From assembly GCA_022353185.1 (NCBI GenBank), contig JAKRWB010000159.1, forward strand, positions 1 to 39,734: a stretch of DNA of 39,734 nt. Reading direction: 5' to 3'. The stretch comes from ANME-2 cluster archaeon. GTDB lineage: Archaea > Halobacteriota > Methanosarcinia > Methanosarcinales > Methanocomedenaceae. Shown piece by piece: positions 3,243 to 39,711 of the stretch. The notes under the pieces were generated by a model. That model was not told where the DNA came from. It worked only from the letters and a program-made list of their open reading frames with translations, and did not search any database. Position 1 is the stretch's first letter. Each line of letters begins with the position of its first letter. A program made the translations under genes and the position numbers.

Positions 3243-3290
3243 GTAAGTCCCAAAACTAATTTGCTTTATATAAAAACCAAACAATATTGA

Positions 3291-3965: not shown

Positions 3966-3968
3966 ATC

Positions 3969-4679: not shown

Positions 4680-4740
4680 GGCTAATTGCTCCTATCAATA
4701 CTGTGTACTATGGGAAAAATATACTTAACGTCTACTTTTT

Positions 4741-5553: not shown

Positions 5554-5590
5554 AACAACATCCCCATCATGAAACTAACTTTCATAGATC

Positions 5591-5914
5591 CTAATAATTA
5601 TCCAGTACACCCTTTACTATGTCTTTAAAGTCATCCTTCAAAGAATAATGGTTGTGCTCCCTTGTCACATCTATTCGCAAAATACCAAGCCGGGTGTTCA
5701 TCAATCCTACCATTGCTGATACACCGCGATAGTTCACGTCAAATCCATGTTGTACCAGATTATTGTAGATGTTGTTGGTGGTATAGATATCACCGTTCAG
5801 GAACATCTTGAGGACAGTCTTGCGCAGATTGGTCTCATCCCTGCGCAGATATTTTAATAACCTTTCTTTCACTTGATCTGTTGTTTGGTTCAGAGTTAAC
5901 CACCAATTAATCAT
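5591..5914 (-). CDS. Small conserved hypothetical protein (possible winged-helix fold)
   Basis: The 107-aa ORF has a plausible composition and nothing competes with it on the opposite strand. I am not confident of any family assignment. Confidence 0.5.
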   Translation of the reverse strand: MINWWLTLNQTTDQVKERLLKYLRRDETNLRKTVLKMFLNGDIYTTNNIYNNLVQHGFDVNYRGVSAMVGLMNTRLGILRIDVTREHNHYSLKDDFKDIVKGVLDNY

Positions 5915-5970
5915 TATTGTATTAGAATTAAGGATAAATATGTTCTTTTATAAGTAAATAAAAGTTGGCG

Positions 5971-7038: not shown

Positions 7039-7165
7039 GTTAACCCCCTATATGTTTTCATAAATATTATATCTATGAGGTAACACAAAGAATCATTGAA
7101 GTAACTGGAAGGTGTCAATACATCGTGAACAAAAGAGGATTTGAAATTTTCATCAAGGATTTGCA

Positions 7166-8218: not shown

Positions 8219-8472
8219 TAGGTATAACCTTAAATCGGCCATATGCTGAAGGACAATGCGCCCTTATTCTTGAACTCCGTTTTATTGGTGTTATCACTGC
8301 TTTTCACACACTTCTGAGGCTGCAAGAACATAACAATATTATGTTCGAGGGGGCGGCTGGTGAGCGGACACGGGCGTTTATTGAGGGGGAGATGGTATGT
8401 TGATGGGTCTGACTATCCTAAAACAATATCAAAAAATATAATAATCCATATCAACATTATATTTTTATACCT

Positions 8473-8559
8473 GTGAAAATATGAACCAGGACATATCCAG
8501 TATCGCTTTATTTTAACGGTGAAAATATGAATCAAGACATATCTAGTATCGCTTTATTT
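8473..8559 (+). repeat. Tandem duplication (46-bp period) of the ribosome-binding region and first 11 codons of the NYN gene
   Basis: Segments 8473-8513 and 8519-8559 match at 38 of 41 positions. Copy 1 forms the mini-ORF ATG 8481..TAA 8516, encoding MNQDISSIALF, which is identical to the N-terminus of the 8527 gene. Confidence 0.85.
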
Positions 8560-9579
8560 ATTGATTTTGAGAACATAAAAAAAGGTGTGGAAAAAAATTT
8601 TAAAAAAGATGTAGATATACAGATTATTGTAGATAAATTAGCCGAATTTGGAACACTCGTTGTTCGCAAAGCTTATTCAGATTGGTCTCAAAATGTAAAA
8701 TATAAAACCATTCTCTTACAATCGGGCATTGAGTTAATCGAAAGATCCAACTTGGTCGAAGGTAAAAATGGTGCCGATATAAAACTTGCAATTGATGCTG
8801 TAGAGTTAGCATTACGAAATACTTACATTGGTACATTCGCAATAGTTTCAGGGGATAGTGATTTTTTATCACTAATTCAAAAATTGAGGGAATATAATAA
8901 AAAAGTTATCGTTGTTGGAGGGAAGGGATTTACTAGTAAATTTATACCAAAGAGTTGTGATGAATATATTTCATATGAAAATCTCTTAAATATTGACAAA
9001 GAAAATTTTAGGCCACCTGATGATATTATTAATTTATTGAATCGATCTATACGAGTGCTTATGGAACAAGGGAAAGGACTGGATGCTTCGGGTGTTAAAA
9101 GTAAGATGAGGAATTTTGAACCAACCTTTGATGAAAAAAATTATGGGTTCGATGGATTTAATAAATTTATAGATTATATTAGTGATAATAAAATTCTTCC
9201 TATTAAAAAAATATGGAGATATGATGCATGGCATATTGAATATATTTCAGAAGAATGGACTAAGACAAATAAAAGTAATGATAATCAAATTGGAACTCAG
9301 ATCCCATCAAAAGATGAATGGAAAATAATCTTGAATATAATAAATGAAGCATTTAATGATGGAAAAACAATTCAAATAACCGATATTTTTATAAAAAATC
9401 ATTTGATAATGGAGAAGTATAATGGCTTATTACCTTTAAACGAATCAAGTATTGATAGAGCTTTCAATGATTTGATTAGCCTCGATATTCTAAAAAAAGA
9501 CCAAAATGGAATAATTTCCCGATCTGAAAATTATGATGTTAATGTAAAGCGCCATCTTCTATTGTCTTCTGACAAATAA
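8527..9579 (+). CDS. NYN (LabA/PIN-like) ribonuclease domain protein with a probable OST-HTH/LOTUS domain
   Basis: The 350-aa ORF contains IALFIDFENI, GADIKLAIDAVELA and FAIVSGDSDFLSLIQKL, which are typical NYN/LabA motifs. A middle segment (GVKSKMRNFEPTFDEKNYGFDGFNKFIDYI) resembles OST-HTH. The gene is very AT-rich compared with its neighbours. Confidence 0.75.
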   Translation: MNQDISSIALFIDFENIKKGVEKNFKKDVDIQIIVDKLAEFGTLVVRKAYSDWSQNVKYKTILLQSGIELIERSNLVEGKNGADIKLAIDAVELALRNTYIGTFAIVSGDSDFLSLIQKLREYNKKVIVVGGKGFTSKFIPKSCDEYISYENLLNIDKENFRPPDDIINLLNRSIRVLMEQGKGLDASGVKSKMRNFEPTFDEKNYGFDGFNKFIDYISDNKILPIKKIWRYDAWHIEYISEEWTKTNKSNDNQIGTQIPSKDEWKIILNIINEAFNDGKTIQITDIFIKNHLIMEKYNGLLPLNESSIDRAFNDLISLDILKKDQNGIISRSENYDVNVKRHLLLSSDK

Positions 9580-9750
9580 AAAAAGCATTTAGCAATATAG
9601 GTGCAGATGAAACCAAATAGAGTCGTAATCATTAATAATAACTCATCACCACTCCACACCCGTTACTATTATATAGAAGTACAAACAGTTAGAAGTGTTC
9701 TTATTATATAGATAATATCATTTAGTTAATATCTTTGGAGGAAATAATCG

Positions 9751-11403
9751 ATGGCAGGAATGGGCGGACAGCCAATAATTATCATTGACCCGAGCAAATC
9801 AAGGACGACAGGCCGGGATGCACAATCCATGAACATTACAGCAGCAAAAGCAATTGCGGATGCCGTGAAAACCACACTTGGTCCAAAAGGAATGGACAAG
9901 ATGATGGTAAACGCTGTAGGTGATGTCATGATAACCAATGACGGTGCAGCTATTTTAAAGCAAATGGATGTGCAGCATCCGGCTGCCATGATGATGGTAC
10001 AGATATCAAAGACCCAGGAACAGGAAGTCGGAGATGGCACCACCAGTGCAGTTGTGCTCGCAGGCGAACTCCTTACCCAGGCCCAGAAATTGATAGAACT
10101 TGAGGTCCATCCCACATTGATCGTCAGCGGATACAAACTGGCAGCAAAAAAAGCACAGGAAATCATGAAATCCATTGCCATCCAGGTTACAGATGATGAC
10201 AATGACATACTGAGAAAGATTGCTCTTACCGCACTTTCTGGAAAAGGTAGCGAGATTGCCCATGATAGTCTGGCAGACCTTTGTGTGGAAGCCATCAAGA
10301 CAATAACAGATAAGTCCCAGACCGATATCAAACATAACATCCAGATCATCCATCAAAAAGGTGGCTCGATCAAAGATACCAAACTCATCAAGGGTATGGT
10401 CATAGACAAGGCCCGGGCTGACAAGAACATGCCCAAATTGATAAAAAATGCGAAGATTGCTGTGCTGGACGTGGGTATTGAAGTACAGAAGACCTCTACA
10501 AGTTCCAAGATAAAGATATCCACTGTGGAACAGCTGGATGAGGCATACCATGAAGAATACCAGACCGTAAAGGACCAGGTGGACAGCCTGGTTAAAGCCG
10601 GAGTGAACGTGCTTGTCACAGAGAAAGGTATTGATGATATTTCCCTTCATTATCTGGGTAAACAGAACATCCTGGCCATAAGAAGGGTGAAAGAAGACGA
10701 CATTACAAGAATCGTCCGTGCCACAGGTGCCGTTTTACGCTCTAACACCACGGATTTTTCCCCAGATGACCTGGGTGCAGCACAAATCGTGGAAGAAAGG
10801 GGAGTTGGGAACTACAAGATGATGTATTTCGAAGGTTGCGATAACCCCAAAGCTGTTACCATAATAGTACACAGCGGTGCTGAGTATATCACTGAAGAAG
10901 TGGAACGAGCTCTTGACGATGCCCTTAGTGTGGTCAAGGTAGTGCTGGATGAAAAGAATGTGCTGTTTGGAGGGGGCGCACCTGAGGTTGAAACAGCCAT
11001 GCAGCTGCGCGAGTACGCTTCATCCATGCAGGGACGTGAACAACTGGCAGTTTCAGCATTTGCCGATGCAATGGAAGGACTTCCCCGTGCTCTTGCAGAG
11101 AATGGAGGACTTGACCCGGTGGATGTTCTGGTGGAAATGCGCTATGAGCATAAGAAAGGCAACAAGACCGTTGGCCTGAACGCAATTACCGGCAAGGTCA
11201 TGGATATGAAGGATACCAGTGTGGTTGAGCCGTTGAAGGTGAAGGTCCAGTCAATTAAATCTGCCACTGATGCGGCCTCAATGATACTGAGAGTGGATGA
11301 TGTATTCGCATCTAAGTACACTGGACTCATGGACGTCAAACCCGAACACAGGGTAGATAGTTATGATGGTATCCAGGCACCCGATATTGGGGACGATTAT
11401 TAG
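9751..11403 (+). CDS. ths: Thermosome subunit (group II chaperonin)
   Basis: The 550-aa ORF contains TLGPKGMDKM, ITNDGAAILK, VGDGTTSAVVLAGELL and GGGAPE, the classic thermosome/CCT signatures. Confidence 0.95.
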   Translation: MAGMGGQPIIIIDPSKSRTTGRDAQSMNITAAKAIADAVKTTLGPKGMDKMMVNAVGDVMITNDGAAILKQMDVQHPAAMMMVQISKTQEQEVGDGTTSAVVLAGELLTQAQKLIELEVHPTLIVSGYKLAAKKAQEIMKSIAIQVTDDDNDILRKIALTALSGKGSEIAHDSLADLCVEAIKTITDKSQTDIKHNIQIIHQKGGSIKDTKLIKGMVIDKARADKNMPKLIKNAKIAVLDVGIEVQKTSTSSKIKISTVEQLDEAYHEEYQTVKDQVDSLVKAGVNVLVTEKGIDDISLHYLGKQNILAIRRVKEDDITRIVRATGAVLRSNTTDFSPDDLGAAQIVEERGVGNYKMMYFEGCDNPKAVTIIVHSGAEYITEEVERALDDALSVVKVVLDEKNVLFGGGAPEVETAMQLREYASSMQGREQLAVSAFADAMEGLPRALAENGGLDPVDVLVEMRYEHKKGNKTVGLNAITGKVMDMKDTSVVEPLKVKVQSIKSATDAASMILRVDDVFASKYTGLMDVKPEHRVDSYDGIQAPDIGDDY

Positions 11404-19995: not shown

Positions 19996-20023
19996 GGATA
20001 CCCCCTTTATTTCGTCTGGAAAG
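19996..20023 (-). promoter_or_regulatory. ORB-like origin recognition box 2
   Basis: The minus strand reads CTTTCCAGACGAAATAAAGGGGGTATCC. It has the same core as boxes 1 and 3. Confidence 0.7.
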
Positions 20024-20039
20024 TTTATAAAGGAGGGGG

Positions 20040-20496
20040 ACCGTATGATTTCAACTGGAAGTGCTAAAAAAAATAGAAAGTATAATAATATAATATATAA
20101 AAAAAATAGTACTAAGGTCTACTTAGTTTATTTTATACATATATCTTTCTATTTAGTTATATTAATTAAATCAATTATTAATATAATTAAATCAATTATT
20201 AATATAATTATATTGTTTATGTTTAAAAACTACTATATCAAAATCATAAATTAGTAGATCAACAAGATTTGAGGAGAAAATTATACTTTATATACCATAA
20301 AAAATGGAAGAAAATAATAAGATAGTCGAAAAATTAAAACAACATAAACGTAGAATATTTTTTAAAACGAAAGCTAAGGAAATCAACTTATCAATTTCAG
20401 ATGCAGAGAAGGAAATGCGTTTATATTTTCCTATACGTTAAAAAAATTGAACAGAAAGTAAATTGAAAACTCAAAAGAAAATGCTTTCAATTAAAT
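20040..20496. other. Candidate duplex unwinding element of the replication origin (extremely AT-rich)
   Basis: This is a long run of almost pure A/T. It includes a 21-bp tandem repeat AATTAAATCAATTATTAATAT x2 (20166-20207). It is bracketed by inverted ORB-like boxes and lies adjacent to cdc6. Confidence 0.65.
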
Positions 20497-20530
20497 CTCC
20501 AGACGAAATCATAGGGTTGGGGGTAATCCC
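20497..20530 (+). promoter_or_regulatory. ORB-like origin recognition box 3 (inverted relative to boxes 1 and 2)
   Basis: The plus strand reads CTCCAGACGAAATCATAGGGTTGGGGGTAATCCC. The 12-nt core TCCAGACGAAAT is the exact reverse complement of the core of box 2. Confidence 0.7.
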
Positions 20531-20531
20531 T

Positions 20532-20822
20532 TCATTCATTTACCGGAACTGTTTCAAGCTGGCCTGCTAAATTCCATATTACCGTTCTTGTATGCAAAGG
20601 CAAATTTTGGTCTGTACTTATGTCATCAAGAATCCTTATGCTTTTAGCAGCCCTGATCGCAGTTGAATCTTCATTCTTTGAAAGAATACCTTTTATTTCA
20701 TCAGCAGAACGTCTAATATTTCTTGGAACTGAATCATCATTAACAATACGATCAACAACTTCTATACACTGTCTTATCACTTCAGCTGGTTCAGCTGGTT
20801 TTCTCATCATTTTGGAACACAT
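20532..20822 (-). CDS. UPF0147-family small archaeal protein
   Basis: The 96-aa ORF contains NIRRSADEI...IRAAKSIRILDDISTDQNLPLHTRTVIWNL, matching my memory of the UPF0147 pattern. Confidence 0.75.
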   Translation of the reverse strand: MCSKMMRKPAEPAEVIRQCIEVVDRIVNDDSVPRNIRRSADEIKGILSKNEDSTAIRAAKSIRILDDISTDQNLPLHTRTVIWNLAGQLETVPVNE

Positions 20823-20918
20823 CCTTACATTTAAAATTGAAACGAATATATGTTAATTCAATAATTTTAATATTATTTTGTAATTTAAACTTACTTTAAA
20901 AAGCAGCGGTTAATTTAA

Positions 20919-21557
20919 GTGTTTATATTACTTATAATGTATGAAAGATTTTCGGTGATAACATTGACTAAGACTGACGAAGACGTAAAACTGGAGAAAA
21001 TAGGAAAATACTTAGAGCTGGGAGGAACTATGCTAGCTCAACATTGTGAGTGCGGCGCACCACTGTTCCGTTATCATGGTAATGTGGTATGTCCTATTTG
21101 TGATTCTAATGGTTCTAATAATCCTGATGTTATTAAATCCAGAAAAAAAGAAAAACCAGGCAGAGAAACGAGCGGACAAAATGAAGTTTTGTTACAGACA
21201 AATACATCAAATACAGATAACAACTTATCCGGTCAGACAAATTCTTCAATAACACAACAATATATATCTTCCCCTGAACAAAGACCAACTTCTCAAACAC
21301 CAAAAGCACAAGCGGCATCGGCAATATCTTCATCAATAGCTCCCCATGTTCCACCCGGACAGGCATCAGGGTATGAAGGTAAAACCAGAATTATATCACC
21401 TGAAACTCAAGAATTTATTAGTTACACAATAATTAACAAAATGGTTCAACTTTGCATGGACCTGCAGCGTGAAACCGACCTGGGCAGGATCATGCAACAG
21501 ATGGAAGCCATCAAATCAGGTACAAAGGCATTGAAAAATCTTAAAAAAATTAATTAG
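20919..21557 (+). CDS. UPF0148 / autoantigen-p27-like zinc-ribbon protein with a long low-complexity S/T/Q/N-rich insert; start uncertain
   Basis: It contains LGGTMLAQHCECGAPLFRYHGNVVCPICD, a zinc ribbon typical of UPF0148. The middle is compositionally biased and the C-terminus is helical. Several alternative starts lie between 20919 and 20965. Confidence 0.65.
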   Translation: MFILLIMYERFSVITLTKTDEDVKLEKIGKYLELGGTMLAQHCECGAPLFRYHGNVVCPICDSNGSNNPDVIKSRKKEKPGRETSGQNEVLLQTNTSNTDNNLSGQTNSSITQQYISSPEQRPTSQTPKAQAASAISSSIAPHVPPGQASGYEGKTRIISPETQEFISYTIINKMVQLCMDLQRETDLGRIMQQMEAIKSGTKALKNLKKIN

Positions 21558-21575: not shown

Positions 21576-24023
21576 TCATCCTTTATACTTGCCACCTACC
21601 ACTTCCCTGATACGTTGTGCGGTCTTCAAGCCTATTGACTCGACCTCCATCAGCTCATCAGTGCCGGCCCTCATCACTGCTTCTACAGTACCAAAATGGC
21701 GTAGCAATTTACCCGCAGCTTTAGGTCCAATATTAGATATGGCAGATATGATATACTCTTGCTGTTCTTTCAATGTCATAGCCGTCTTTTTACCGTGAAG
21801 ACTTGGCGTGCGTTTATTATCTTCCTGTTCACGCCTGGCAATAGCACCAATCATTTCTGCCGTTTCTGCTTCATCCCTGGTATTGAGGATAGGAACCCCG
21901 AAATCAGTGACAATGGATGCCAACACACCCCTGATAGCGTTGGGATGCAACTGCCTACCGGTATAGAGATTCTCGCCTTCGATTATCAGCACAGGCCGTT
22001 CATAGTTCCGGGCCAGGTTTGAAAGCTGCCTGAAGATGTTCCGCTCCTTATCAATAATGGAATCCAAAAAGTCCATATCGGTCTTGCGCTCAATGGCCAC
22101 CCGGTCGCTGACGATATAGTCGCCCACTTCCAGTGTGGCAAGGACGATATCAACCCCTCCCCTATCCAGGGCACGTGCCACACCTGAGCGAATCTCGCGC
22201 TGGTCCACATATACCAGGGGCTTTTCATTTTTATTTTCATAATCGAATATCTGTTTCTGTCCTGTCGAGGTAGCTACGGCTTTATTATTAATGTCAGCAA
22301 GGTCAATATTTCCAACTTCATCAGACATACCCGACATCCCAACTCCTCCAGCCTCATTAGTTGTACCCTGCATCCCAACTCCTCCACTCCCACCATATGT
22401 ATCCCCAAAACTTACCCTATCAGGAATATGCCTGTCTGAATCAGATGTGTTGTTGCTAAGTTCCCGCATCTTTTTGTTCATGTTCTGTTCCTTGCGGTGA
22501 CTGCTCCAGTAGTATGCCTCGTCCTTGGTGCCCTTTGCAACCAGCACTATCACTTTACCGGCATGACTGCGCCCGGTGCGCCCTTTCCGCTGGATGCTGC
22601 GTATCTCTGAGGGAACAGGTTCATAGAACAGCACCAGGTCAGTGGCAGGGATATCCAGTCCTTCTTCTGCCACTGAAGTGGCTACAAGGGTATTGTACTT
22701 CCCGGACTTGAACTGGTCCAGGATCTCCACCTGCTGTTTCTGGGTAAGGCCTGTATCCTTGTACTTGCTGGCTTGCCCAACGAACCTTACAGGCCTGACA
22801 CCTTCAACCTCTTCCAGGCTCTGTGTCACCAGTTCAGACATATCCCTGTAATTGGTGAATATGATCACCCTGGAATCAGGGTTCTTGTTCAACTGTTCTG
22901 ATACAATCTCCTGTACGGCTTCCAGTTTAGGATGGACCGCATCCAACTCCTTCAGGGCATACATGGCATGGCGCATGTTCACGTCATCCACCAGCCTGCG
23001 GGATGCCTTACTGCCTGACTTTGAATTAGCCTCATGCTCCAGGCGGTCAAAATATTTGGCCAGGGCCTCTGGTCCCTGGGTCTCGGCGACCTCAATGGCA
23101 TGTGCCACTTTAAAGATCTCGGCGACCAGGGAGATGGCTTTGTAAACCATCTGGTCAGGTCCGCCTCTCAGTTTACCCTGCAGCCTGGATTGTAGATCCA
23201 GCAGTTCGCGTTTGTTCAGGTATTTCTGGTTAGGAGCCACAAAACCCAATTTAGCAAGCTGGGTTAGCCTATCTTCCAATACTTTTTTCATAGAATCAAG
23301 CAGCCCCTTCATTTCCACTGGAACTATTACATGCCTCCATTCCAGTTTCCTGAAATGGACATAAGGTTTCACGTCAGGGTCATCTTCGGTCCTTACCTGG
23401 ATACTTGAGATATGGAGGTTGCGGGTTACTTCATCGATCTTGTCGCTGTTTGAGCCGGGACTGGCTGTGATTCCCAGTATTAACGGGTCATGTGCCAGTG
23501 CCTGGTATTTTTCGGCAATGTACACGTAGGCATAGTTGCCCACAGCTCTGTGGGCTTCGTCAAAGGTGATATGGATCACGTCGGACAGGTCGATGCGGCG
23601 GGAGAGCATGTCGTTTTCTATGACCTGGGGCGTGGAGACCACCACCCGGGCATCATTCCAAAGTGCAGTCCGTTTTGCAGGCGGGATGCTGCCTGTGAAC
23701 ACCACAATATCTTCCGGGGACAGGTTCATAGAATTCTTCAAAAAGGCTGCATGTTGCTCCACGAGAGGTTTGGTGGGTGATAGGATGAGGGCTTTGCCGC
23801 TTTTTTGTGTGAACCTGCCTGCGATTACCAGCATGGCAACTATGGTCTTGCCCAGGCCTGTTGGCAGTACCACCAGGGTGGATTGTTTGAGTGCCATGCC
23901 TGCAAGGTTGAGCTGGAAGAGGCGCTGCTCTATCGTGTTTGGCTTGATGAGAGGGTGGGTGATAAATTCGGTTGGATGTTCCTCAATATTTGTTTTTGTT
24001 TCCATCTGCGATATGGTAGACAC
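21576..24023 (-). CDS. hef: Hef helicase/nuclease (SF2 helicase + ERCC4/XPF nuclease + HhH2)
   Basis: The 815-aa ORF has helicase motifs (LPTGLGKT, TFDEAH, TASPG, QRKGRTGR), a G/M/S-rich linker, the ERCC4 motif (VAIERK, GDY) and a C-terminal HhH pair. Confidence 0.92.
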   Translation of the reverse strand: MSTISQMETKTNIEEHPTEFITHPLIKPNTIEQRLFQLNLAGMALKQSTLVVLPTGLGKTIVAMLVIAGRFTQKSGKALILSPTKPLVEQHAAFLKNSMNLSPEDIVVFTGSIPPAKRTALWNDARVVVSTPQVIENDMLSRRIDLSDVIHITFDEAHRAVGNYAYVYIAEKYQALAHDPLILGITASPGSNSDKIDEVTRNLHISSIQVRTEDDPDVKPYVHFRKLEWRHVIVPVEMKGLLDSMKKVLEDRLTQLAKLGFVAPNQKYLNKRELLDLQSRLQGKLRGGPDQMVYKAISLVAEIFKVAHAIEVAETQGPEALAKYFDRLEHEANSKSGSKASRRLVDDVNMRHAMYALKELDAVHPKLEAVQEIVSEQLNKNPDSRVIIFTNYRDMSELVTQSLEEVEGVRPVRFVGQASKYKDTGLTQKQQVEILDQFKSGKYNTLVATSVAEEGLDIPATDLVLFYEPVPSEIRSIQRKGRTGRSHAGKVIVLVAKGTKDEAYYWSSHRKEQNMNKKMRELSNNTSDSDRHIPDRVSFGDTYGGSGGVGMQGTTNEAGGVGMSGMSDEVGNIDLADINNKAVATSTGQKQIFDYENKNEKPLVYVDQREIRSGVARALDRGGVDIVLATLEVGDYIVSDRVAIERKTDMDFLDSIIDKERNIFRQLSNLARNYERPVLIIEGENLYTGRQLHPNAIRGVLASIVTDFGVPILNTRDEAETAEMIGAIARREQEDNKRTPSLHGKKTAMTLKEQQEYIISAISNIGPKAAGKLLRHFGTVEAVMRAGTDELMEVESIGLKTAQRIREVVGGKYKG

Positions 24024-24342: not shown

Positions 24343-25749
24343 ATGAAATTTATCAATCGTGAAAAAGAAATACAGATTCTTGAAGATATCGGGCTATTGT
24401 CCAAAAGAAAATTGTTTTCGGTAGCGATATGGGGTTTAAGGCGTGTCGGTAAAACAAGATTGATGCTTGAATTTATGGAAGATACTGATATATATTTTTT
24501 TGTGAACAATGACAAAACAAGCATAAGTCTACTGGATGAGTATGAGATATATCTAAGAAATGCTAAAATCATCAGTGAACTTGAGAAATTGAACAGTTGG
24601 GATGATTTTTTTAAAGTCCTGTTTGAAAGATATGAAGGTATTGTTGCATTTGATGAGTTCCAAAATTTCTTATCTGTGGACAAATCTGTATTTGGTACTT
24701 TGCAGAAATATATTGATCTGAATGAGGAAAAAAAAGGTATTCTTCTCTTTTTTTCAGGTTCTACTTCAGGACTTATAAAAAAATTGTTTTTAGACTCAAA
24801 ACAGCCACTGTATGGCAGAATAAAGAGGAAAATGCATTTGAAACCCATGTCTTTTGAAAATATTATTGACATGTGTACGGAACTTGATATTACTGAACTT
24901 TCAGATATCATAAAGTTATATGCGGTTGCCGGAGGCTATCCACGTTATTATGTTGCTGTTGAAGATGAAAATTTAAGTGATGTGTCTTTTGAAAAAATTA
25001 TCGATCGATTTTTCTTTGTGGAAAATGCAATTTTTGAAGATGAGGTCATGTCAATATTGTCTTTGGAATTCGGGAAAAGAAGTGGTGTGTATTATGATAT
25101 ACTTACAGCCGTTGCAAGCGGATGTACAAGGATTAGTGAGATTGCATCATTTTTAAGAAAAAAGGAGACTGACCTTACACGCCAGACGTATGAACTTGTG
25201 CATCATTTTAATATTTTAAATTATGAAGAACAGGTCATAGGCAATAAAAAATTGTTGTATATTGACCATCCTCTTATGGATTTTTGGTTCCGTTTCTTTT
25301 ACAAGAATATTTCAGATTATAAAAGACGAAATCCAAGGTTTGTAGAGAACACGAAACGAAATATTAACAATCATATTGGAAAAAGATTTGAGATTATTTC
25401 CCGGGAATTTTTAATCGATAAAAATAAGATCCCTTTTGAATATGACACGATTGGGAGGCAGTGGGGCAAGATAAAAGGTGCTCCAAAAGGACAAAATACT
25501 TATGAGATAGACATTGTTGCCTTGAATTCTGATTCAAAAGAGATACTTTTTGTTGAATGTAAATGGAAAGATCTGAGTTTAAAGCAGGCCGAGGATATCC
25601 TTATTGATTTACAGGAAAAATCTAAGTTTATTGATTGGAACAATGATGTTCGAAAGGAACATTTTGGATTAATCGCAAAGACGATTTCCGATAAGGATAT
25701 TTTGCGTGCAAGGGGTTTCATCGTTTTTGATCTGGATGATTTTAGATGA
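24343..25749 (+). CDS. Archaeal AAA+ ATPase with C-terminal DUF234 (PD-(D/E)xK nuclease-like) domain
   Basis: The 468-aa ORF starts FINREKEIQIL, has Walker A (GLRRVGKT) and Walker B (IVAFDEFQ), and near the C-terminus reads YEIDIVALNSDSKEILFVECKWKD, a D..ExK nuclease-type motif. Confidence 0.85.
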   Translation: MKFINREKEIQILEDIGLLSKRKLFSVAIWGLRRVGKTRLMLEFMEDTDIYFFVNNDKTSISLLDEYEIYLRNAKIISELEKLNSWDDFFKVLFERYEGIVAFDEFQNFLSVDKSVFGTLQKYIDLNEEKKGILLFFSGSTSGLIKKLFLDSKQPLYGRIKRKMHLKPMSFENIIDMCTELDITELSDIIKLYAVAGGYPRYYVAVEDENLSDVSFEKIIDRFFFVENAIFEDEVMSILSLEFGKRSGVYYDILTAVASGCTRISEIASFLRKKETDLTRQTYELVHHFNILNYEEQVIGNKKLLYIDHPLMDFWFRFFYKNISDYKRRNPRFVENTKRNINNHIGKRFEIISREFLIDKNKIPFEYDTIGRQWGKIKGAPKGQNTYEIDIVALNSDSKEILFVECKWKDLSLKQAEDILIDLQEKSKFIDWNNDVRKEHFGLIAKTISDKDILRARGFIVFDLDDFR

Positions 25750-27492: not shown

Positions 27493-28701
27493 ATGGAAAG
27501 TTTTAATATGGAAAGTTTCAAAAAATTAGGTATAACGAAGCCTATTTTAAAATCAATAATTGAACAGAGATTTGAAAATCCCACTGAAATACAGGAAAAA
27601 GCCATTCCTTTAATTCTTGCAGGAAACGATGTTATAGCCGGGTCATCTACAGGTTCCGGAAAAACGCTTGCGTTTGCATCAGGTATATTGCAAAATTCTA
27701 TCAAAGGAAATGGTGTCCAGGCTTTGATCCTGACTCCTACCAGGGAACTGGCAGAGCAGGTCGCAAACAGTTTCAGGCTATTTTCAAAATACAAACATTT
27801 AGAGATCGTTGCAGTCTATGGAGGTATGGGTATCAACCCGCAAATCAAGGCATTGAAGACAGCAGATGTTGTTGTAGGCACACCAGGCAGGATGCTTGAC
27901 CATCTCGCAAGAAAAACTATAAAATTGGGTAAAGTAGAAACCCTTGTCCTCGATGAAGCAGACCGTATGTTTGATATGGGATTCAAAAATGATGTGGAAA
28001 AGATCATCAAACAGTGTCCTCCGGACAGGCAGACTCTTTTATTCTCGGCAACAATCTCAAGCGATATTGTCAAACTCTCCAGGAACAGCATGAAAAAACC
28101 GCTTCAGGTCTCTGTTAATCCTTATGTTGACGTGGGTAATCTGGATCAGACATATTACCAGGTCCAGGATGATATGAAATTATCTTTACTGGTGCATCTG
28201 TTGCAGCATGAAAAATCAGACCTGGTAATGGTTTTCTGCAATACTAAAAGAAATACTGACAAAGTTGCAAAGAACCTGAGGGCTTCAAATATTGATGCAC
28301 AGGCTATTCATGGCGGATTGACCCAGGGTAAACGGATTACTGTAATGAAGCAATTCAGTACAGGGAAATCATGTGTCCTTGTATGCACAGATGTAGCTGC
28401 AAGAGGGCTCGATATCGAGGGTATTTCTCATGTTTATAATTATGATGTACCCAGGGAGAGCAATCAGTATATCCACAGGATCGGCAGAACTGCAAGAGCA
28501 GGGGCCAAAGGGAAGGCAATAAGTATCATTTCCAGAAGTGACCAGGGCGATTTTACAAGTATATTGAGAGAAAATAATGTAGAGATAAAGAAAGTGAAAG
28601 TACCTAGCTTTGAGAAGGTCGTGGTGCGAAAACCACATAGAAACATGAATAACGCCATCTCAAGAAATGGTCAGCAACCCAACAGGCACAGGAATCGTTA
28701 A
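27493..28701 (+). CDS. DEAD-box ATP-dependent RNA helicase
   Basis: The 402-aa ORF has the Q motif (F..PTEIQ) and the motifs GSGKT, PTRELA, DEAD, SAT and HRIGRTARAG. The true start may be the second ATGGAAAGTTT at 27508. Confidence 0.93.
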   Translation: MESFNMESFKKLGITKPILKSIIEQRFENPTEIQEKAIPLILAGNDVIAGSSTGSGKTLAFASGILQNSIKGNGVQALILTPTRELAEQVANSFRLFSKYKHLEIVAVYGGMGINPQIKALKTADVVVGTPGRMLDHLARKTIKLGKVETLVLDEADRMFDMGFKNDVEKIIKQCPPDRQTLLFSATISSDIVKLSRNSMKKPLQVSVNPYVDVGNLDQTYYQVQDDMKLSLLVHLLQHEKSDLVMVFCNTKRNTDKVAKNLRASNIDAQAIHGGLTQGKRITVMKQFSTGKSCVLVCTDVAARGLDIEGISHVYNYDVPRESNQYIHRIGRTARAGAKGKAISIISRSDQGDFTSILRENNVEIKKVKVPSFEKVVVRKPHRNMNNAISRNGQQPNRHRNR

Positions 28702-31033: not shown

Positions 31034-32674
<1,641 letters not shown>

Positions 32675-33059: not shown

Positions 33060-33434
33060 GTGATATGTATGAGTGGGAAGGGAAATATTCAGGCATTTAA
33101 GCCGGGTGAAGAATATATGGGACATGATGCAATCCTCCAGGTACGGGCCGACCGCCATATGACCGAAGATGAGACCAGGTCGGTACATAATATTGTCGAC
33201 AAATACTGCAGCGGCGTAGACTACGAGTATCTTGATATCAAGCGGGGGATTGATGTTTATATCACCAATGTGGCCAGTGCCAGGCATGCGGCTGCCAGGA
33301 TAATGAAAGTGCTGGGGGGCAGCAAGAAGGAGAGTTCGAAGTATTTGCGGGTGCAGGGGGGTAGGGTGTTGTACCAGTTTACGGTACGGGTGAAGCTGCC
33401 GAAGGAGGCTTCGGGGGGGAGGTATGGGTTTTGA
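33060..33434 (+). CDS. Small NMD3-family-like protein
   Basis: The 124-aa ORF contains AILQVRAD, RGIDVYITNVASARHAAARIMKVLGG and LYQFTVRVKLP, which resemble the NMD3 N-terminal domain (COG1499) as remembered. Its last ~157 nt are duplicated at 34119-34275. Confidence 0.6.
   Translation: MICMSGKGNIQAFKPGEEYMGHDAILQVRADRHMTEDETRSVHNIVDKYCSGVDYEYLDIKRGIDVYITNVASARHAAARIMKVLGGSKKESSKYLRVQGGRVLYQFTVRVKLPKEASGGRYGF
33275..33432 (+). repeat. Direct repeat copy 1 (3' end of the NMD3-like gene)
   Basis: It is near-identical to 34119-34275. By eye there are two single-base differences plus a short indel-containing patch near the 3' end. Confidence 0.9.
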
Positions 33435-33504: not shown

Positions 33505-33720
33505 ATGACCACCAAAACAATCACTATCAGGGAAGATGTGTACAACATGCTCTTGTCAATCAAGGGAACCAAGGAAAGTTTCAGCAAGTTTTTTGAGAGA
33601 ATGGTTATATCCCGGCGCAATGTGGATAAATTGAAGGAACTGCGTGGTTTTGTTGAGGTCAAAGAAAAAGATACCCTGTTGAAAGAGTTGTCAGAAAAAA
33701 GAAAGGAGATACGATATTGA
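33505..33720 (+). CDS. vapB: VapB-type antitoxin (archaeal putative-antitoxin family, PF02697-like)
   Basis: The 71-aa ORF begins MTTKTITIREDVYNMLLSIKGTKESFSKFFERMV, matching the KTI.I.E.VY..L...K...ESFS pattern. It overlaps the PIN gene by 4 nt. Confidence 0.8.
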   Translation: MTTKTITIREDVYNMLLSIKGTKESFSKFFERMVISRRNVDKLKELRGFVEVKEKDTLLKELSEKRKEIRY

Positions 33721-34094
33721 TTCTTGTTGATACTGATGTCCTTATCGAAATATTTGACAGAAATTCGGAAAAAGGCGACAAGGCATTGAAGAAGATAGAG
33801 GAGACAGGAGAAGATATCACTACCACTTCTTTGAATCTGCATGAGATCCTGTACGGTTTGCATAAATATACCGACCATGCAAAACTCGAAAGGATACTTG
33901 TGCTTGACGCTGTTGAGTTCACAAAGGATGATGCAGTTCTTTCCTCAAAACTTGAAGTAGAAACAGAGAAAAAGGGGCAGAAGGTTCCCAGGTTCGATGC
34001 CATGATTGCGGCGGTTGCAATAAACCGGGGATTTAAGTTGTTTACTTTTAATGAGAAGCATTTTAAGGTATTCAGTGATTTGACGCTGGTTTGA
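33717..34094 (+). CDS. vapC: PIN-domain toxin VapC
   Basis: The 125-aa ORF has a TTG start. ILVDTDVLIE carries the first acidic residue, followed by a conserved E in LHEILYGL and FDAMIAAVAI carrying the third acidic residue. Confidence 0.85.
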   Translation: MILVDTDVLIEIFDRNSEKGDKALKKIEETGEDITTTSLNLHEILYGLHKYTDHAKLERILVLDAVEFTKDDAVLSSKLEVETEKKGQKVPRFDAMIAAVAINRGFKLFTFNEKHFKVFSDLTLV

Positions 34095-34118: not shown

Positions 34119-34350
34119 CAGTGCCAGGCATGCGGCTGCCAGGATAATGAAGGTGCTGGGGGGCAGCAAGAAGGAGAGTTCGAAGTATTTGCGGGTGCAG
34201 GGGGGTAGGGTGTTGTACCGGTTTACGGTACGGGTGAAGCTGCCGAAGGAGGCTTCGGGAGGAGATATGGGTTTTAGATATGTTTCTATTAATGCCAGAT
34301 ATGCGATATTTTCATCTTATTATGCAGATATTTTTACATGGGATTTTTAA
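34119..34350 (+). pseudogene. Orphan duplicated 3' fragment of the NMD3-like gene (direct repeat copy 2 plus its divergent tail)
   Basis: It encodes ..MKVLGGSKKESSKYLRVQGGRVLYRFTVRVKLPKEASGG.., nearly identical to the C-terminus of 33060-33434, but it lacks the rest of the gene. Confidence 0.8.
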
Positions 34351-35569: not shown

Positions 35570-37024
35570 TCACTCTTCTTCCAGTTCCTGATAAATCGTA
35601 CTGAACTGCTCCAACGCCGCCCCGAGGTTCTCTGTAATGTCCCTTGCAAGCACATCCGGGGGAGGCAGGTTCTCAGAATCTTCAAGGCTTTCATCCTTGA
35701 GCCAGAATATGTCAAGACTTGCCTTGTCCCGCTGCATGAGTTCGGCATAATCAAATACCCTGAACTGTGCGTTTTCCTTTCTGTCATGCCTGTTATTGGG
35801 ATTGTAGCATTTGATGAAATCCTTCAGGCTATCGTAGGCGAGCGGATTTGTCTTCAGGGTAAAATGCTGGTTGGTCCTTAAATCATATATCCATAACTTC
35901 TCGGTCCAGGGCTTCTCACTTGCCTGTTTGCGGTCAAAGAACAGCACGTTAGCTTTAACACCCTGGGCATAGAACACGCCTGTGGGCAGCCGCAGCAGTG
36001 TATGGACATCGCACTCGGCCAGCAGTTTCTTCCGCACGGTCTCGCCTGCGCCGCCCTCAAAGAGTACATTATCCGGCACCACAATGGCGGCTTTACCGTT
36101 GATCTTGAGCAGGGTCTTCACATGCTGGAGGAAGTTCAACTGCTTGTTCGAGGTGGTTGCCCAGAAGTCATCCCTGTCATAGGTCTGGGTGTTCTTGTCT
36201 GCTTTTCCATCGCCGTTGACAATGGTGTAGCTGCTCTTTTTGCCAAAGGGAGGATTGGTAAGCACCATGTCAAACCTGTCGCCTGGGTCTGAGATCAGTG
36301 CGTCCCCGGTTTTTATGGGGCTCGTTTCCCCGCCTATGCCATGCAGGTAGAGATTCATTGCGCACAGCCTGACCACATTATCGACTATGTCCCACCCTTT
36401 AAAGGTATTGAGTTTCAGGAATTGTTTCTGTTCTTTATCGATATCATAATGCGAAATATAATCGTGAGCGGCCAGCATGAAGCCGCCGGTACCGCAGGCC
36501 GGGTCGCAGATGGTCATGCCGGGTTCGGGTTTCATGACCTCGACGATGGCCTTTATGAGCGGCCTGGGTGTGAAATACTGGCCTGCGCCGCTTTTGGTGT
36601 CCTCTGCATTCTTCTGCAGCAGTCCTTCGTAGATATCGCCTTTGACATCAATGTCCAGTCCCAGCCAGGTTTCACCATTGATAAGTTCGATGAGCCGCCG
36701 CAGTTTTGCAGGGTCCTGTATCTTGTTCTGGGATTTCCTGAAGATGACACCAAGCATTCCGCTCTCTTTGGCCAGGGTTTCGAGCATGTGGCGGTAATGC
36801 ACTTCAAGCGCATCCCCATCTTTTTCACTGAGGCTTTGCCAGTCATAATTTGCGGGAATGATTGATTCTTTGTGAAAGGGCGGTCTGGTCTGTTCATCAG
36901 CCATTTTCAGGAAGACGAGATAGGTCAATTGCTCCACATAATCGCCGTAGCTCACGCCGTCGTCACGGAGTACGTTGCAGTAGTTCCAGAGGCGCTGGAC
37001 AATGGTTGCAGATTCGTTGTTCAT
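35570..37024 (-). CDS. hsdM: Type I restriction-modification system methyltransferase subunit HsdM
   Basis: The 484-aa ORF has the HsdM N-terminal domain (LWNYCNVLRDDG..Y.EQLTYLVFLKM), SAM motif I (DPACGTGGFM) and catalytic motif IV (NPPFG). Confidence 0.93.
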   Translation of the reverse strand: MNNESATIVQRLWNYCNVLRDDGVSYGDYVEQLTYLVFLKMADEQTRPPFHKESIIPANYDWQSLSEKDGDALEVHYRHMLETLAKESGMLGVIFRKSQNKIQDPAKLRRLIELINGETWLGLDIDVKGDIYEGLLQKNAEDTKSGAGQYFTPRPLIKAIVEVMKPEPGMTICDPACGTGGFMLAAHDYISHYDIDKEQKQFLKLNTFKGWDIVDNVVRLCAMNLYLHGIGGETSPIKTGDALISDPGDRFDMVLTNPPFGKKSSYTIVNGDGKADKNTQTYDRDDFWATTSNKQLNFLQHVKTLLKINGKAAIVVPDNVLFEGGAGETVRKKLLAECDVHTLLRLPTGVFYAQGVKANVLFFDRKQASEKPWTEKLWIYDLRTNQHFTLKTNPLAYDSLKDFIKCYNPNNRHDRKENAQFRVFDYAELMQRDKASLDIFWLKDESLEDSENLPPPDVLARDITENLGAALEQFSTIYQELEEE

Positions 37025-37039
37025 AGTTAAATCCGGGTG

Positions 37040-37366
37040 TTAAGCTGCGAACATTACTTTTCCACTTTTAGCAAATTCGGCTACAGGTGAGGTTTCATTT
37101 TCAAATTCTTCAGATGTAAGGGTGATAATATCCAGGGGGACCATGAATTTTCGAATTGTTTTTATCTCAGCATCCTTTGTTAAACGGGCTCGTTCAAAAA
37201 TATCTTTGTTCTTAAAATCATCCGATATTATCAATATATCTACATCACTATTATCAGTTGTTTCAGTAGCCTGTGAACCAAATAAGATGATTTTCGAGAT
37301 ATTTAGTCTATTCTCTTTCAAGCATTGCTCCAAGAATTTAATTACCTTTTCAATATTATTATACAT
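37040..37366 (-). CDS. Minimal nucleotidyltransferase (MNT-type antitoxin-like), with no HEPN partner in sight
   Basis: The 108-aa ORF contains LFGSQATETTDNSDVDILIISD, the GS..(n)..D.D polymerase-beta-fold NTase motif. Confidence 0.8.
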   Translation of the reverse strand: MYNNIEKVIKFLEQCLKENRLNISKIILFGSQATETTDNSDVDILIISDDFKNKDIFERARLTKDAEIKTIRKFMVPLDIITLTSEEFENETSPVAEFAKSGKVMFAA

Positions 37367-37392: not shown

Positions 37393-38583
37393 TTAGAACG
37401 ATGACAACAATGTCTGTTTTCGTGACACGTCTTTTTTCATTTTTGCGATTTTTTTATAATCTTCTTTTTTTACTTGATCCTTACTGGAAAGATATTCCAA
37501 AGCTCTTTGGTCATCGATAATTTTCCTTAGTCGAATGGATTCTAATCCTATTTGCTCTAAATTAAAACTTTTTTGAAGAATTTTTACATCTAAGTCTTCA
37601 TTTGTGAAAGAATCCATTTTAATAATCGAATCATCTGGATAGATTTCTTGAATTTCATTTGGGGTTAATTTGTAATATCCGTAATCTGCTTTATTAAATA
37701 ACCTCAGTTTATTTTCTTCACGATTTTGTAATTTCTCAAAAAACTCTTTAGGCCCTTTTAACGGTTTATGTTTTTCACCTATACTATCAAAACCGAGACC
37801 GAAAGATAGAATGTCTTTTGCACCTACTACATTCGCATCTTTATTGAATCTTCCTTGATTTGCATTTATTGAATGAATAAAACTATTTTCCAAAAGATCA
37901 TGTTCTTTTAATGAACGCATGAAACTTCTAATGGTCTGACGCATACTCAAAGGAGTTTTCCCATCAAAATCAAATACAAAAGCATCAATCTCTTTTTTTG
38001 CGTAGAAATCAACAATATCAGGTATGAATAACAGTGATGGTGGGACTATACCAATAATAGGTTTATGGTTCAATGTTTCGATTATTTCAATCGATTCTTC
38101 TAAAAATGATGTATATTTTTCAAATTCACCTTCTGAATTGATTCGTTGAGGGAGTTTGGGGATAATTGGTAATGGCGTAATATCAGAATATTCATAAGCA
38201 GTGTCAAGAATGAATTCTAATGGTTTTTTTTCTGGATATTTTATATCATCGTATTCAATAAAAAGAATGTTAATTTCTTTATCAGTATTTGTTTTTCGGG
38301 TTAAAGAATTTAGTTCATAATTGAGTTTGTCTAATTTATCAGGAATATTTAAAACGCTATAGATTGAGTTCTTAGTTAAATCTTTACTAAGAGAGAATCT
38401 TTTGTATAACTCATTTATTCCTTTTGTCTTATCATTAAAAAGTAGTTTTGAATTTGTTTTTGATAAATTCAATGATTTCGTTGGTGTTGTTAGTTTTTTC
38501 CCGTTTATGCGAAGGTCTTTTGTAACATATAACGAGTCATCATCTGGAGAAATCCTTTCGAACTCAATATGTTTAGACATCAT
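37393..38583 (-). CDS. Unassigned 396-aa protein; weak collinear tRNA-guanine transglycosylase-like motifs (hypothesis)
   Basis: This is a long uninterrupted ORF in an AT-rich region. The protein is Cys- and Trp-free. The motifs are INGKKLTTP (aa 26-34), IEYDD (109-113), IIGIVPPSLL (176-185) and GLGFDS (262-267). See the findings. Confidence 0.75.
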   Translation of the reverse strand: MMSKHIEFERISPDDDSLYVTKDLRINGKKLTTPTKSLNLSKTNSKLLFNDKTKGINELYKRFSLSKDLTKNSIYSVLNIPDKLDKLNYELNSLTRKTNTDKEINILFIEYDDIKYPEKKPLEFILDTAYEYSDITPLPIIPKLPQRINSEGEFEKYTSFLEESIEIIETLNHKPIIGIVPPSLLFIPDIVDFYAKKEIDAFVFDFDGKTPLSMRQTIRSFMRSLKEHDLLENSFIHSINANQGRFNKDANVVGAKDILSFGLGFDSIGEKHKPLKGPKEFFEKLQNREENKLRLFNKADYGYYKLTPNEIQEIYPDDSIIKMDSFTNEDLDVKILQKSFNLEQIGLESIRLRKIIDDQRALEYLSSKDQVKKEDYKKIAKMKKDVSRKQTLLSSF

Positions 38584-38626: not shown

Positions 38627-39112
38627 TCAAAAAGATTTATTCATTCTGAATCTTGAAGAAGACAATTTATTGAGTAGTTTGTCTCGTTTATCTTTGGTGA
38701 TTGCCTGTTTCTTTAGCAGCAATTCAATTAAGCCGATAGTCCCGGTAAAAACCACATTATGTTTTTCTGCGATTTGTCTCGCTTTTTTATCATCAATTAT
38801 ACAATAATTCTTATCGACGGATGAATCTAATTTTAACCACCATAAGATAACTTCAATTTCCCCATTTCCTAGATAGGGATATCTATTCTTGAAATGAAAA
38901 ATATCTATTTCAGGCAAACTGGCCAGTATTTCGATATTCCCATTCGCCATATTCGATTTTAAAGGATCTGAAGTCCTACCGTTTTCTATTTCCTTAAGTA
39001 CACTTCTTGGTATCTTCAACTCATATCCTAATTCTATGAATTTATGCAATATTTCTGGTTCATCAAGTTCAGTATAAAAAGCTATGACTGGGGATGAATC
39101 TAAAATTTTCAT
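38627..39112 (-). CDS. DUF3368-type PIN-like toxin
   Basis: The 161-aa ORF contains GNGEIEVILW...CIIDDKKARQIAEKHNVVFTGTIGLIELLLKK, matching the GE.E.I...DD..AR..A......GT.G.L pattern of DUF3368. Confidence 0.7.
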   Translation of the reverse strand: MKILDSSPVIAFYTELDEPEILHKFIELGYELKIPRSVLKEIENGRTSDPLKSNMANGNIEILASLPEIDIFHFKNRYPYLGNGEIEVILWWLKLDSSVDKNYCIIDDKKARQIAEKHNVVFTGTIGLIELLLKKQAITKDKRDKLLNKLSSSRFRMNKSF

Positions 39113-39123
39113 AATCAGAGTAC

Positions 39124-39711
39124 CTATGAATATATCTGAATCCCTTTCAGTTTAACTTCTCTAACAAAATCATCAATATTAGTTCCAGAGATTTCCAGGG
39201 CTTTCCCAAAACTAATCTTGTTTTTTGCATAGAGATTTAATGCAATATTTTTTCGTTTGGGCTGTATTTTATTAATCTTTATCGACTCTTCTGTCATTTC
39301 AGGATAAGTAAAATATATGAACCCGAGCAATTCATCTTCGGTCATATCATTCAGCATATCCTTGAAATCCTCTATCATTTCTTTTTCTTCGGTAGTGATA
39401 TTTTTGCCTATTATTTGTGCGATTTCCTTACCAAGACCAGTTAATTTTAGTTTATTTCCCTCTTTTACAACGACTCTTGCAGATTCAAGCTGTTCCAGTT
39501 CTTCATCTGCAGTTTCACTATAAGGTCCCATAAAATCAGCTTCAAAATCAGCATCATCTGCAAGTTCTTCATTGTTCTTGCATAAAAGAAAAAGTTCCTT
39601 TTGATACCAGAGTTTGCCTTTGATTGGCTCAAAATTGTTTGCACTCAGGAGTAACAAAGCGTATTTTTGAGTTTCAGTCAGGTTTTCAAATATTCTTTTC
39701 TTAATATCCAT
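39124..39711 (-). CDS. Fusion protein: Panacea/DUF4065-like N-terminal domain + UPF0175 HTH antitoxin C-terminal domain
   Basis: The 195-aa ORF has a C-terminus ALNLYAKNKISFGKALEISGTNIDDFVREVKLKGI, which fits the UPF0175 pattern, the usual partner of DUF3368. The N-terminus (WYQKELFLL...FEADFMGPYSETADEELEQL) resembles SocA/Panacea-type domains. It lies 11 nt upstream of the PIN gene. Confidence 0.65.
   Translation of the reverse strand: MDIKKRIFENLTETQKYALLLLSANNFEPIKGKLWYQKELFLLCKNNEELADDADFEADFMGPYSETADEELEQLESARVVVKEGNKLKLTGLGKEIAQIIGKNITTEEKEMIEDFKDMLNDMTEDELLGFIYFTYPEMTEESIKINKIQPKRKNIALNLYAKNKISFGKALEISGTNIDDFVREVKLKGIQIYS

Follow-up and report, generated by a model that had tools for sequence, protein, structure and literature searches.

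A contig of an ANME-2 cluster archaeon (JAKRWB010000159.1 of assembly GCA_022353185.1, analysed over its positions 1 to 39,734 and called the window below) carries a gene of previously nameless family, here termed gene C (37393..38583, minus strand), whose product is predicted to adopt the fold of the tRNA-guanine transglycosylases (TGTs). Together with two genes upstream of it, A (39124..39711, minus strand) and B (38627..39112, minus strand), it forms a conserved, mobile and patchily distributed three-gene cassette that is almost only archaeal. We tentatively read A-B-C, with somewhat less than even confidence, as a tripartite toxin-antitoxin-like or defence module, in which the TGT-fold protein would be a base-flipping nucleic-acid effector that acts with the PIN-like nuclease encoded by gene B and is restrained by the product of gene A. 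Neither the protein family of C nor the A-B-C trio nor a TGT-fold toxin was found described in the open-access literature that was searched.

The cassette was delineated by annotating the neighbourhoods of seven homologues of gene C and by scanning the open reading frames (ORFs) of all fetched loci with our own hidden Markov models (HMMs). Genes A and B directly adjoin gene C in every locus with upstream DNA, one decayed locus (L034, see below) being a partial exception. The genes either follow the order A>B>C, in which a stop codon frequently overlaps the next start codon, or are arranged as B<A divergent from C>, and across the loci the A proteins have 186-216 and the B proteins about 155-170 amino acids. 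In one of the divergent loci (L031), a 29-nt imperfect AT-rich palindrome is present in the intergenic region between A and C (5944-6003) and might be an operator; it was absent from three other divergent loci, and no operator palindrome is common to the A/C intergenic regions.

Gene B of the window lies 43 nt upstream of gene C and encodes a PIN-like nuclease of 161 amino acids belonging to DUF3368/COG2405. It matches the PADLOC model PDC-S70 with an E value of 7.9e-17 and shows weak Pfam matches to DUF3368 and PIN, and its orthologues have precomputed matches to PF11848. The acidic residues D5, E41, E85 and D107 are conserved to 86-100% in 42 sequences; with its acidic active site intact, the protein is predicted to be an active nuclease. 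Gene A, which ends 11 nt upstream of gene B, encodes an acidic protein of 195 amino acids (isoelectric point 4.8, compared with 8.5 for B). Its C-terminal 45 residues are a UPF0175/COG2886 helix-turn-helix (HTH) domain, detected with Pfam in 26 of 29 orthologues, and the N-terminal stretch of about 140 residues is an extra winged-helix domain that matches PADLOC PDC-M19A in all 29. In 22 of these 29 orthologues the N-terminal domain also matches positions 162-289 of the 329 positions of a DarG model (best E value 1.9e-7); the comparison with the DarG structure 7yk3_B in the PDB gave an E value of 0.014, and weak matches to SocA_Panacea had E values of 0.004-0.05. These HMM matches suggest that the N-terminal domain of A is related to the C-terminal toxin-binding domain of DarG and to Panacea.

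Together, gene B and the UPF0175 part of A make up a pair of precisely the COG2405-COG2886 type, which has been predicted to be a toxin-antitoxin pair (Makarova 2009, PMC2701414; Matelska 2017, PMC5499597) and which is listed, as PDC-S70, among archaeal-enriched defence candidates (PMC12988326). In contrast to such pairs, the antitoxin of the cassette has an extra domain of about 140 amino acids, and a TGT-fold gene of about 400 codons is always attached. Three-component COG2405 systems are also known from PMC5499597, but these contain an HTH protein and a DUF955 protease and are likewise unlike A-B-C. An ordinary pair is present elsewhere in one of the loci (L001, 741-1549) and consists of a UPF0175 protein of 101 and a DUF3368 protein of 168 amino acids; this two-gene pair lacks the extra domain, and thus the extra domain of A goes with the presence of C. 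A likeness also exists to DarTG and Panacea (PanA), in that a domain of the DarG C-terminal or Panacea type, here part of A, is encoded beside a putative toxin. In DarTG, this domain neutralizes a toxin that modifies bases of nucleic acids. The differences are that the putative partner here is a TGT-fold protein, joined by a PIN nuclease, and that no macrodomain or DarT matches were found in A, B or C.

Composition and surroundings place the cassette in a mobile and, in part, defence-related context. In the window, the block consisting of A, B, C and an adjacent MNT-type nucleotidyltransferase gene has a GC content of 0.29-0.33, compared with 0.42 for the whole window, which makes the cassette AT-rich. 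Transposases flank it in two loci (L005 and L010), and other cassette loci hold SIR2, AbiEii or type I restriction-modification (R-M) genes or transposases. A locus from a Heimdallarchaeota metagenome-assembled genome (MAG; L034, 854-2629) contains an intact gene C with all conserved residues and an A gene that is split into ORFs of 110 and 60 amino acids, and no B gene is present. Either the cassette is decaying here or the assembly is wrong, and the locus fits the view that C and the N-terminal domain of A are the core of the cassette.

A divergent subfamily of the gene C protein provides a second, differently organized version of the cassette. A paralogue of 407 amino acids, C', was found in two Methanoperedens contigs (L013 and L014) at a distance of 2.6 kb from an A-B-C cassette, and a search for its relatives yielded 29 proteins, one of which is encoded by the complete genome of the cultured Methanoregula formicica. 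In four inspected contexts and in L013 the gene order is C'>A'>B', and the genes overlap. The A' proteins (158-166 amino acids) consist of the DarG-like winged-helix domain only and lack UPF0175, and the B' proteins (153-182 amino acids) are classical PIN proteins (PF01850, best E value 7.5e-9). Thus, a DarG-like domain accompanies C in both subfamilies, whichever type of PIN protein is present, and the trio survives both a permuted gene order and the replacement by another PIN family, which confirms the cassette. In M. formicica (L050, CP003167, locus 1-11197) the trio lies between a DUF1156 methylase and a DUF499 ATPase, with a SNF2 helicase upstream, and this host locus is an Hma or 'BREX-related' system (PMC12839542). 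In a further locus (L055, 1-13221) the C'A'B' trio is located inside a DISARM-like locus with an Eco57I-type methylase, a DEAD/MZB helicase and a PLD protein, and a kinase-helicase is encoded nearby. The two Methanoperedens contigs carry both cassette subfamilies on the same strand and about 2.6 kb apart (550-2735 and 4855-7164 in L013; 333-2035 and 4870-7179 in L014).

Gene C is a genuine gene. The ORF has 396 codons from its first ATG, the homologues and the NCBI record use the second of two consecutive ATGs, and the product, starting at the ATG at 38580, probably has 395 amino acids. It is 100% identical to MIO93_04135, which is labelled 'hypothetical protein', has an isoelectric point of 7.0 and, as the initial annotation of this DNA had pointed out, contains no cysteine; the four short peptides listed there as TGT motifs are also found at the residues given, with the codon of D266 at 37788-37786. 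No match to the protein was obtained in Pfam or NCBIfam (E<=1) or with PADLOC, and neither the protein nor a profile of its family built from 41 sequences matched a PDB sequence or profile at E<=10.

The family to which the protein belongs is large, almost purely archaeal and previously nameless, and it is a new domain family for annotation. A word-indexed search returned 70 homologues with identities down to 33%, none of which is named or has a Pfam domain, and a profile search of 1.84 billion representatives returned 629 cluster representatives at E<=1e-3, 235 of them at E<=1e-30. Nearly all members have 340-450 amino acids. Among species-representative genomes of the GTDB the family is present in 38 loci, and its bacterial members are confined to two MAG contigs. 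The archaeal members are spread over Methanosarcinales, Methanoperedens, Syntrophoarchaeum, Archaeoglobus, Halobacteriales and Thermoplasmatota, as well as over Bathyarchaeia, Nitrosopumilus/Thaumarchaeota, Wolframiiraptor, many DPANN lineages and Asgard lineages; a scan of viral contigs revealed no relative.

By itself the sequence resemblance to TGTs is at chance level; it is structure prediction together with a Foldseek comparison that validates the kinship. An AlphaFold2 model, for which the alignment of 41 sequences served as input, has a mean predicted local distance difference test score (pLDDT) of 89 and a predicted template modelling score of 0.90. It consists of a three-stranded N-terminal sheet (lid strands 7-13, 20-26 and 29-33), eight strand/helix units, a beta-hairpin (293-297 and 302-306) and C-terminal helices. 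All of the top 50 Foldseek matches in the PDB were TGTs, including Zymomonas mobilis Tgt and mouse and human QTRT1, with a probability of 1.0, E values of 2e-7 to 5e-6, template modelling (TM) scores of 0.5-0.6, about 400 aligned columns and about 10% identity; in total 114 PDB matches had E<=1e-3. DpdA (7ui4) and the archaeosine TGT (ArcTGT) were not among these top 50, and the comparison with viral structures gave weak matches only (TM about 0.3), some of them to viral TGT-like proteins and others to glycosidases, phosphodiesterases and radical-SAM barrels. According to this model the gene C protein has a TGT-type (beta/alpha)8 barrel, and the guess of a TGT-like fold made in the initial annotation is borne out. 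The likeness to Tgt and QTRT1 (PF01702; 1Q2R, 6H62, 7NQ4) extends over the three-stranded lid, the barrel, the hairpin after strand 8 and the C-terminal helices, and two sequence features are shared as well, the TP motif that follows the lid and the Asn in the 'HN' helix. The gene C protein differs from them by an additional helix, located after strand 8 and before the hairpin, whereas only Tgt and QTRT1 have the zinc site and the Asp of the DSGG motif, and they are found in a queuosine-pathway context rather than in a cassette with PIN and antitoxin genes.

At the sequence level the resemblance is fragmentary and collinear. The reference sequences agreed with the PDB entries, that of Pyrococcus horikoshii ArcTGT being identical to 1iq8 and that of Z. 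mobilis Tgt differing from 1enu in one residue. In a single BLASTP comparison, residues 4-35 of the gene C protein were aligned with residues 6-35 of ArcTGT at 41% identity and an E value of 0.051. The match of INGKKLTTP to VNGKKIETP of ArcTGT, proposed in the initial annotation, was recovered in this way, the residue numbers being the same in both proteins over the N-terminal 35 residues (E 0.05). The other three of the four collinear motifs listed there are real strings in the protein, but they were not recovered by BLASTP. Profile comparisons were made with hhalign between the 234-sequence alignment of the family, over which residue conservation was also counted, and two TGT profiles, the first from three and the second from about 120 sequences; secondary-structure strings were used in some of the comparisons. 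The TGT profile is shallow, the homologues gathered for it being only near-identical gammaproteobacterial Tgt proteins. Residues 15-35 were aligned with Z. mobilis 21-41, which contain the invariant TP motif (E 0.03-0.18), residues 136-213 with residues 146-214 of Tgt, and residues 332-382 with P. horikoshii 299-349 (E 0.008). T33 and P34 (codons 38482..38487, minus strand), the counterparts of T33-P34 of P. horikoshii and T39-P40 of Z. mobilis, are conserved to 91% and 100%, respectively, in the 234 relatives, and TP is invariant in the TGT alignment. N341 aligns opposite the Asn of the 'HN' helix, and a Phe stands where TGT has the zinc-binding His. With ArcTGT (1IQ8) the gene C protein thus shares the archaeal origin and alignable N-terminal 35 residues and C-terminal helix, but it is without the C1-C3/PUA domains and the zinc site and has no conserved counterpart of D95 nor, in the register set by secondary structure and hhalign, of D130.

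The functional residues of TGTs are retained in part at best. In TGT and DpdA three active-site Asp residues, i.e. the acid/base, the base-recognition and the nucleophile residue, are invariant, and the zinc site CxCx2Cx22H is conserved (PMC10164549). The acid/base Asp (Z. mobilis D102, P. horikoshii D95, DpdA D95) had been equated with D112 of the gene C protein (codon 38248..38250, minus strand) in the initial annotation. Its position is as expected, D112 being at the C-terminal end of strand 104-112, like the TGT residue (D89 ends strand 86-89 in a control Tgt model), but its conservation is not, with an Asp in only 77 of the 234 sequences (33%) and Asp or Glu in 49%; the DSGG motif is absent from the 234-sequence alignment. 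The position of the base-recognition Asp (Z. mobilis D156, P. horikoshii D130, DpdA D130) corresponds to I140/P139, without an Asp, when secondary structure and hhalign set the register, and an alternative register, in which DI-TP is matched with DIPTP, would place D134 (89% conserved) there. The third of the proposed motifs (176-185) aligns with TGT strand 5 by secondary-structure order and hhalign and not with the strand 6 segment to which it had been matched. The pocket residues Q203 and G229/G230 of Z. mobilis Tgt and, in the register set by secondary structure and hhalign, D156 are replaced in the family.

D266 (codon 37786..37788, minus strand) is located in or beside barrel strand 8 within the motif FGxGFDSxGxxH, and an Asp is present in 214 of the 234 sequences (91%). 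No other residue is a candidate for the counterpart of the TGT nucleophile, and two registers are possible for D266. One of them, that of the initial annotation, equates it with the nucleophile (Z. mobilis D280, P. horikoshii D249, DpdA D256); the other, based on a low-stringency hhalign comparison and on helix-end spacing, equates it with Z. mobilis D277, so that G269 would correspond to D280. The control model, of Serratia Tgt, has a pLDDT of 62, falling below 50 over residues 245-336, i.e. in the region of the nucleophile register. The zinc site is absent throughout the 234 members; no alignment column contains Cys in more than 39% of the sequences, and the median number is two per protein. 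Judged from the alignments, the zinc site and, of the TGT catalytic residues, at least the general acid/base Asp have been lost in the family.

In place of these residues the family has a conserved set of its own. The conserved positions are T33, P34, E58, D134, P139, G178, P181, Y194, D205, N240 and D257 in the first part of the protein and G264, D266, G269, H272, F296, Y301, Y303, N341, E343, E348 and K368 in the second. The polar residues among them (E58, D134, D205, N240, D257, D266, H272, Y194, Y301, Y303, N341, E343, E348 and K368) are retained in the divergent C' subfamily with the exception of D134, Y194 and Y303. This polar set, kept even in C', shows the pattern of an active enzyme with an altered pocket and therefore suggests that the gene C protein is an active enzyme whose pocket is unlike the guanine/7-deazaguanine pocket of TGT. 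The family has a median isoelectric point of 8.9, and its C-terminal helical tail is basic.

The following mechanism of the tripartite module can be envisaged. The TGT-fold protein C would bind RNA or DNA, flip out a base and attack the N-glycosidic bond, and the outcome would be excision or exchange of a base on tRNA or on an invader nucleic acid. It would work with the PIN nuclease B or parallel to it, and the acidic protein A would restrain both of them. The DarG-like domain of A would block C, in analogy to the C-terminal domain of DarG, which, according to Deep et al. (2023) as cited in PMC12170906, neutralizes the DNA-base-modifying toxin DarT by mimicry of single-stranded DNA (ssDNA). 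The UPF0175 HTH domain of A would pair with the DUF3368 PIN protein, in the subfamily found in the window, and would probably autoregulate the operon. In a more detailed version, a zinc-less effector derived from a transglycosylase would remove or exchange a base of its substrate, either an invader DNA or a tRNA (at archaeosine or anticodon positions, for instance), the PIN nuclease would cut the damaged molecule, and the DarG-like mimic would restrain the effector; in this detail the scheme is doubtful.

It should be noted that a number of observations weigh against a tripartite module with C as its effector. The TGT homology of gene C is derived from one predicted structure, and the profile-profile matches between the family and TGT, although collinear, fall short of significance (hhalign E values of 0.03-0.2 at a probability <6%). 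The initial annotation had pointed to the TGT profile PF01702, and the profile searches gave no match of gene C to it in Pfam or to the PDB. Most of the residues on which base exchange by TGT depends are missing from the family, namely the zinc site, the DSGG Asp, the Q/GG pocket residues and, in the register set by secondary structure and hhalign, the Asp for base recognition, and the barrel could perform a different chemistry or none. About half of the inspected neighbourhoods are of the housekeeping type rather than of the defence type. The intact gene C of L034, a single MAG, next to a broken A gene sits awkwardly with a lethal toxin. Lastly, as A' has no UPF0175 domain, a scheme with one domain of A per toxin is not general.

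The main alternative, unlikely but realistic, assigns to C the role of a TGT-fold subunit without catalytic activity, as QTRT2 is in the eukaryotic TGT, which would recognize or sense a nucleic acid, such as the loop of a tRNA or, in invader DNA, a modified base, and would recruit or license the PIN nuclease, with A as the regulator. The loss of the hallmark catalytic and zinc residues of TGT is consistent with such a role, and so are the obligatory co-occurrence and often translational coupling with PIN proteins of two different families, the basic C-terminal tail of C, and the locus L034, in which C is kept intact without B and with a broken A. However, about ten acidic, His and Asn residues (E58, D205, N240, D257, D266 and H272 among them) are invariant or nearly so and are also present in C', which looks more like an active site than like a scaffold.

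It is improbable, though less so than the two readings that follow, that C is an enzyme of the TIM-barrel type with a small molecule or nucleotide, and not a polynucleotide, as its substrate; it would, for instance, deplete or make a metabolite or signal within the cassette, and the TGT-like fold would be an evolutionary leftover. TIM barrels are chemically versatile, the residues of the TGT guanine pocket are replaced by another conserved polar set, and the weaker viral Foldseek matches include glycosidases, phosphodiesterases and radical-SAM barrels. Nevertheless, the top PDB matches are exclusively TGTs over about 400 columns, including the lid and the C-terminal helices that contact tRNA in TGT, and the partners of C are a nuclease and a domain related to the ssDNA-mimicking antitoxin domain.

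That C is a housekeeping tRNA- or rRNA-modifying transglycosylase of a new, archaeal type is very improbable. The TGT fold with a lid of the tRNA-TGT type, the archaeal distribution and the location of some gene C loci among ribosomal-protein and purine genes would agree with this role. The patchy distribution, the occurrence in more than one copy (L013 and L014 each have two paralogous cassettes separated by 2.6 kb), the flanking transposases, the constant linkage to PIN and antitoxin-like genes, the atypical GC content and the embedding in defence loci speak against it.

Least credible of all, and rejected here, is the proposal of the initial annotation that C, like DpdA or ArcTGT, inserts a preQ0-derived 7-deazaguanine into DNA as a self mark or for anti-restriction, coupled to the hsdM gene of the window: the TGT-like fold, the conserved D266 near strand 8 and the co-directional hsdM agree with it, but the conserved residues, the DpdA-specific architecture and the conserved context are all contrary. 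The acid/base Asp is present in 33% of the family, a conserved base-recognition Asp is lacking in the register set by secondary structure and hhalign, and the zinc site is gone, whereas these features are conserved in TGT and DpdA (PMC10164549). The gene C protein shares with DpdA (Salmonella Montevideo, 7UI4) membership in the TIM-barrel TGT superfamily and a conflict or defence context; DpdA, however, has a large Ins8, the zinc site and all three Asp residues, its partners are DpdB and DpdC, and it is devoid of the N-terminal lid, a feature of tRNA-TGTs (PMC10164549) that is present in C. No DpdB, DpdC, queuosine or preQ0 genes were found in the annotated neighbourhoods, the viral contigs scanned contain no relatives, and an N6-methylase is present within the flanks in only three of about 45 loci (the window, L002 and L009), with an hsdM in the window that differs in GC content. 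The tempting label 'DpdA-like DNA modification enzyme' for gene C is thus corrected as unsupported.

If the tripartite module with a TGT-fold effector is real, toxins and immune effectors would for the first time include one with a transglycosylase fold, and the 'single-gene' archaeal candidate PDC-S70 would become a three-gene system. PDC-S70 is among the most prevalent archaeal-enriched defence candidates and has been treated as a single gene, without experimental validation (PMC12988326). Part of this gene class is really a three-gene cassette, the largest component of which, with at least 629 clusters, was previously unannotated. If C is catalytic, base excision or exchange would join the known chemistries of toxins and defence systems, and the family would show how a tRNA-modification fold can be reused after the loss of its zinc site and catalytic dyad. 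Archaeal immunity and toxin-antitoxin biology are poorly charted, and the cassette is a concrete and testable system, one member of which is present in the cultured M. formicica.

The genes downstream of the cassette in the window were also covered by the initial annotation, which had placed gene C in a type I R-M/toxin-antitoxin block. The toxin-antitoxin part of this description stands, whereas the R-M part is reduced to a lone hsdM of differing GC content (0.51, compared with 0.29-0.33 for the cassette) that is co-directional with the cassette. The MNT-type nucleotidyltransferase gene (37040..37366, minus strand; NTP_transf_2, E 5.6e-11) is 26 nt from C, and hsdM, encoding a type I N6-adenine methylase (35570..37024, minus strand; N6_Mtase, E 7e-70, and HsdM_N), is 15 nt from the MNT gene, both distances being as annotated initially. 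The MNT gene is next to C only in the window, L001, L002, L012 and L014, i.e. in close relatives from ANME-2 and Methanoperedens. No HEPN partner of MNT was found within the window; in L002, a Methanoperedens locus, an MNT gene, a second MNT gene and HepT precede hsdM at the corresponding place, and the HEPN toxin thus seems to have been lost in the window. Neither hsdS nor hsdR is beside hsdM, the downstream ORFs (171 and 184 amino acids) having no Pfam match or being membrane-like, and the orthologous hsdM of L002 is interrupted by a DDE transposase. The presumed functional coupling of C to the methylase is therefore not supported: a methylase is near C only in the three loci named above, MNT only in close relatives, and both genes are lineage-specific neighbours outside the conserved cassette.

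The region of the window around the cassette is no dense defence island. It contains genes for a Hef-like helicase/ERCC4 nuclease (21576-24023), an ATPase_2/DUF234 protein (24343-25749), a DEAD-box helicase (27493-28701) and a thermosome subunit (31034-32674). At 20001-21000 the GC content drops sharply to 0.275, against about 0.4-0.5 in the genes on either side, and the window shows several further swings. A direct repeat of 144 nt (33275-33418 and 34119-34262; 98% identical) flanks a VapB/VapC pair at 33505-34094 (VAPB_antitox, E 1e-12; PIN, E 9e-17). The repeat copies the 3' end of the ORF 33060-33434, as if vapBC had been inserted with a duplication of the end of its target gene.

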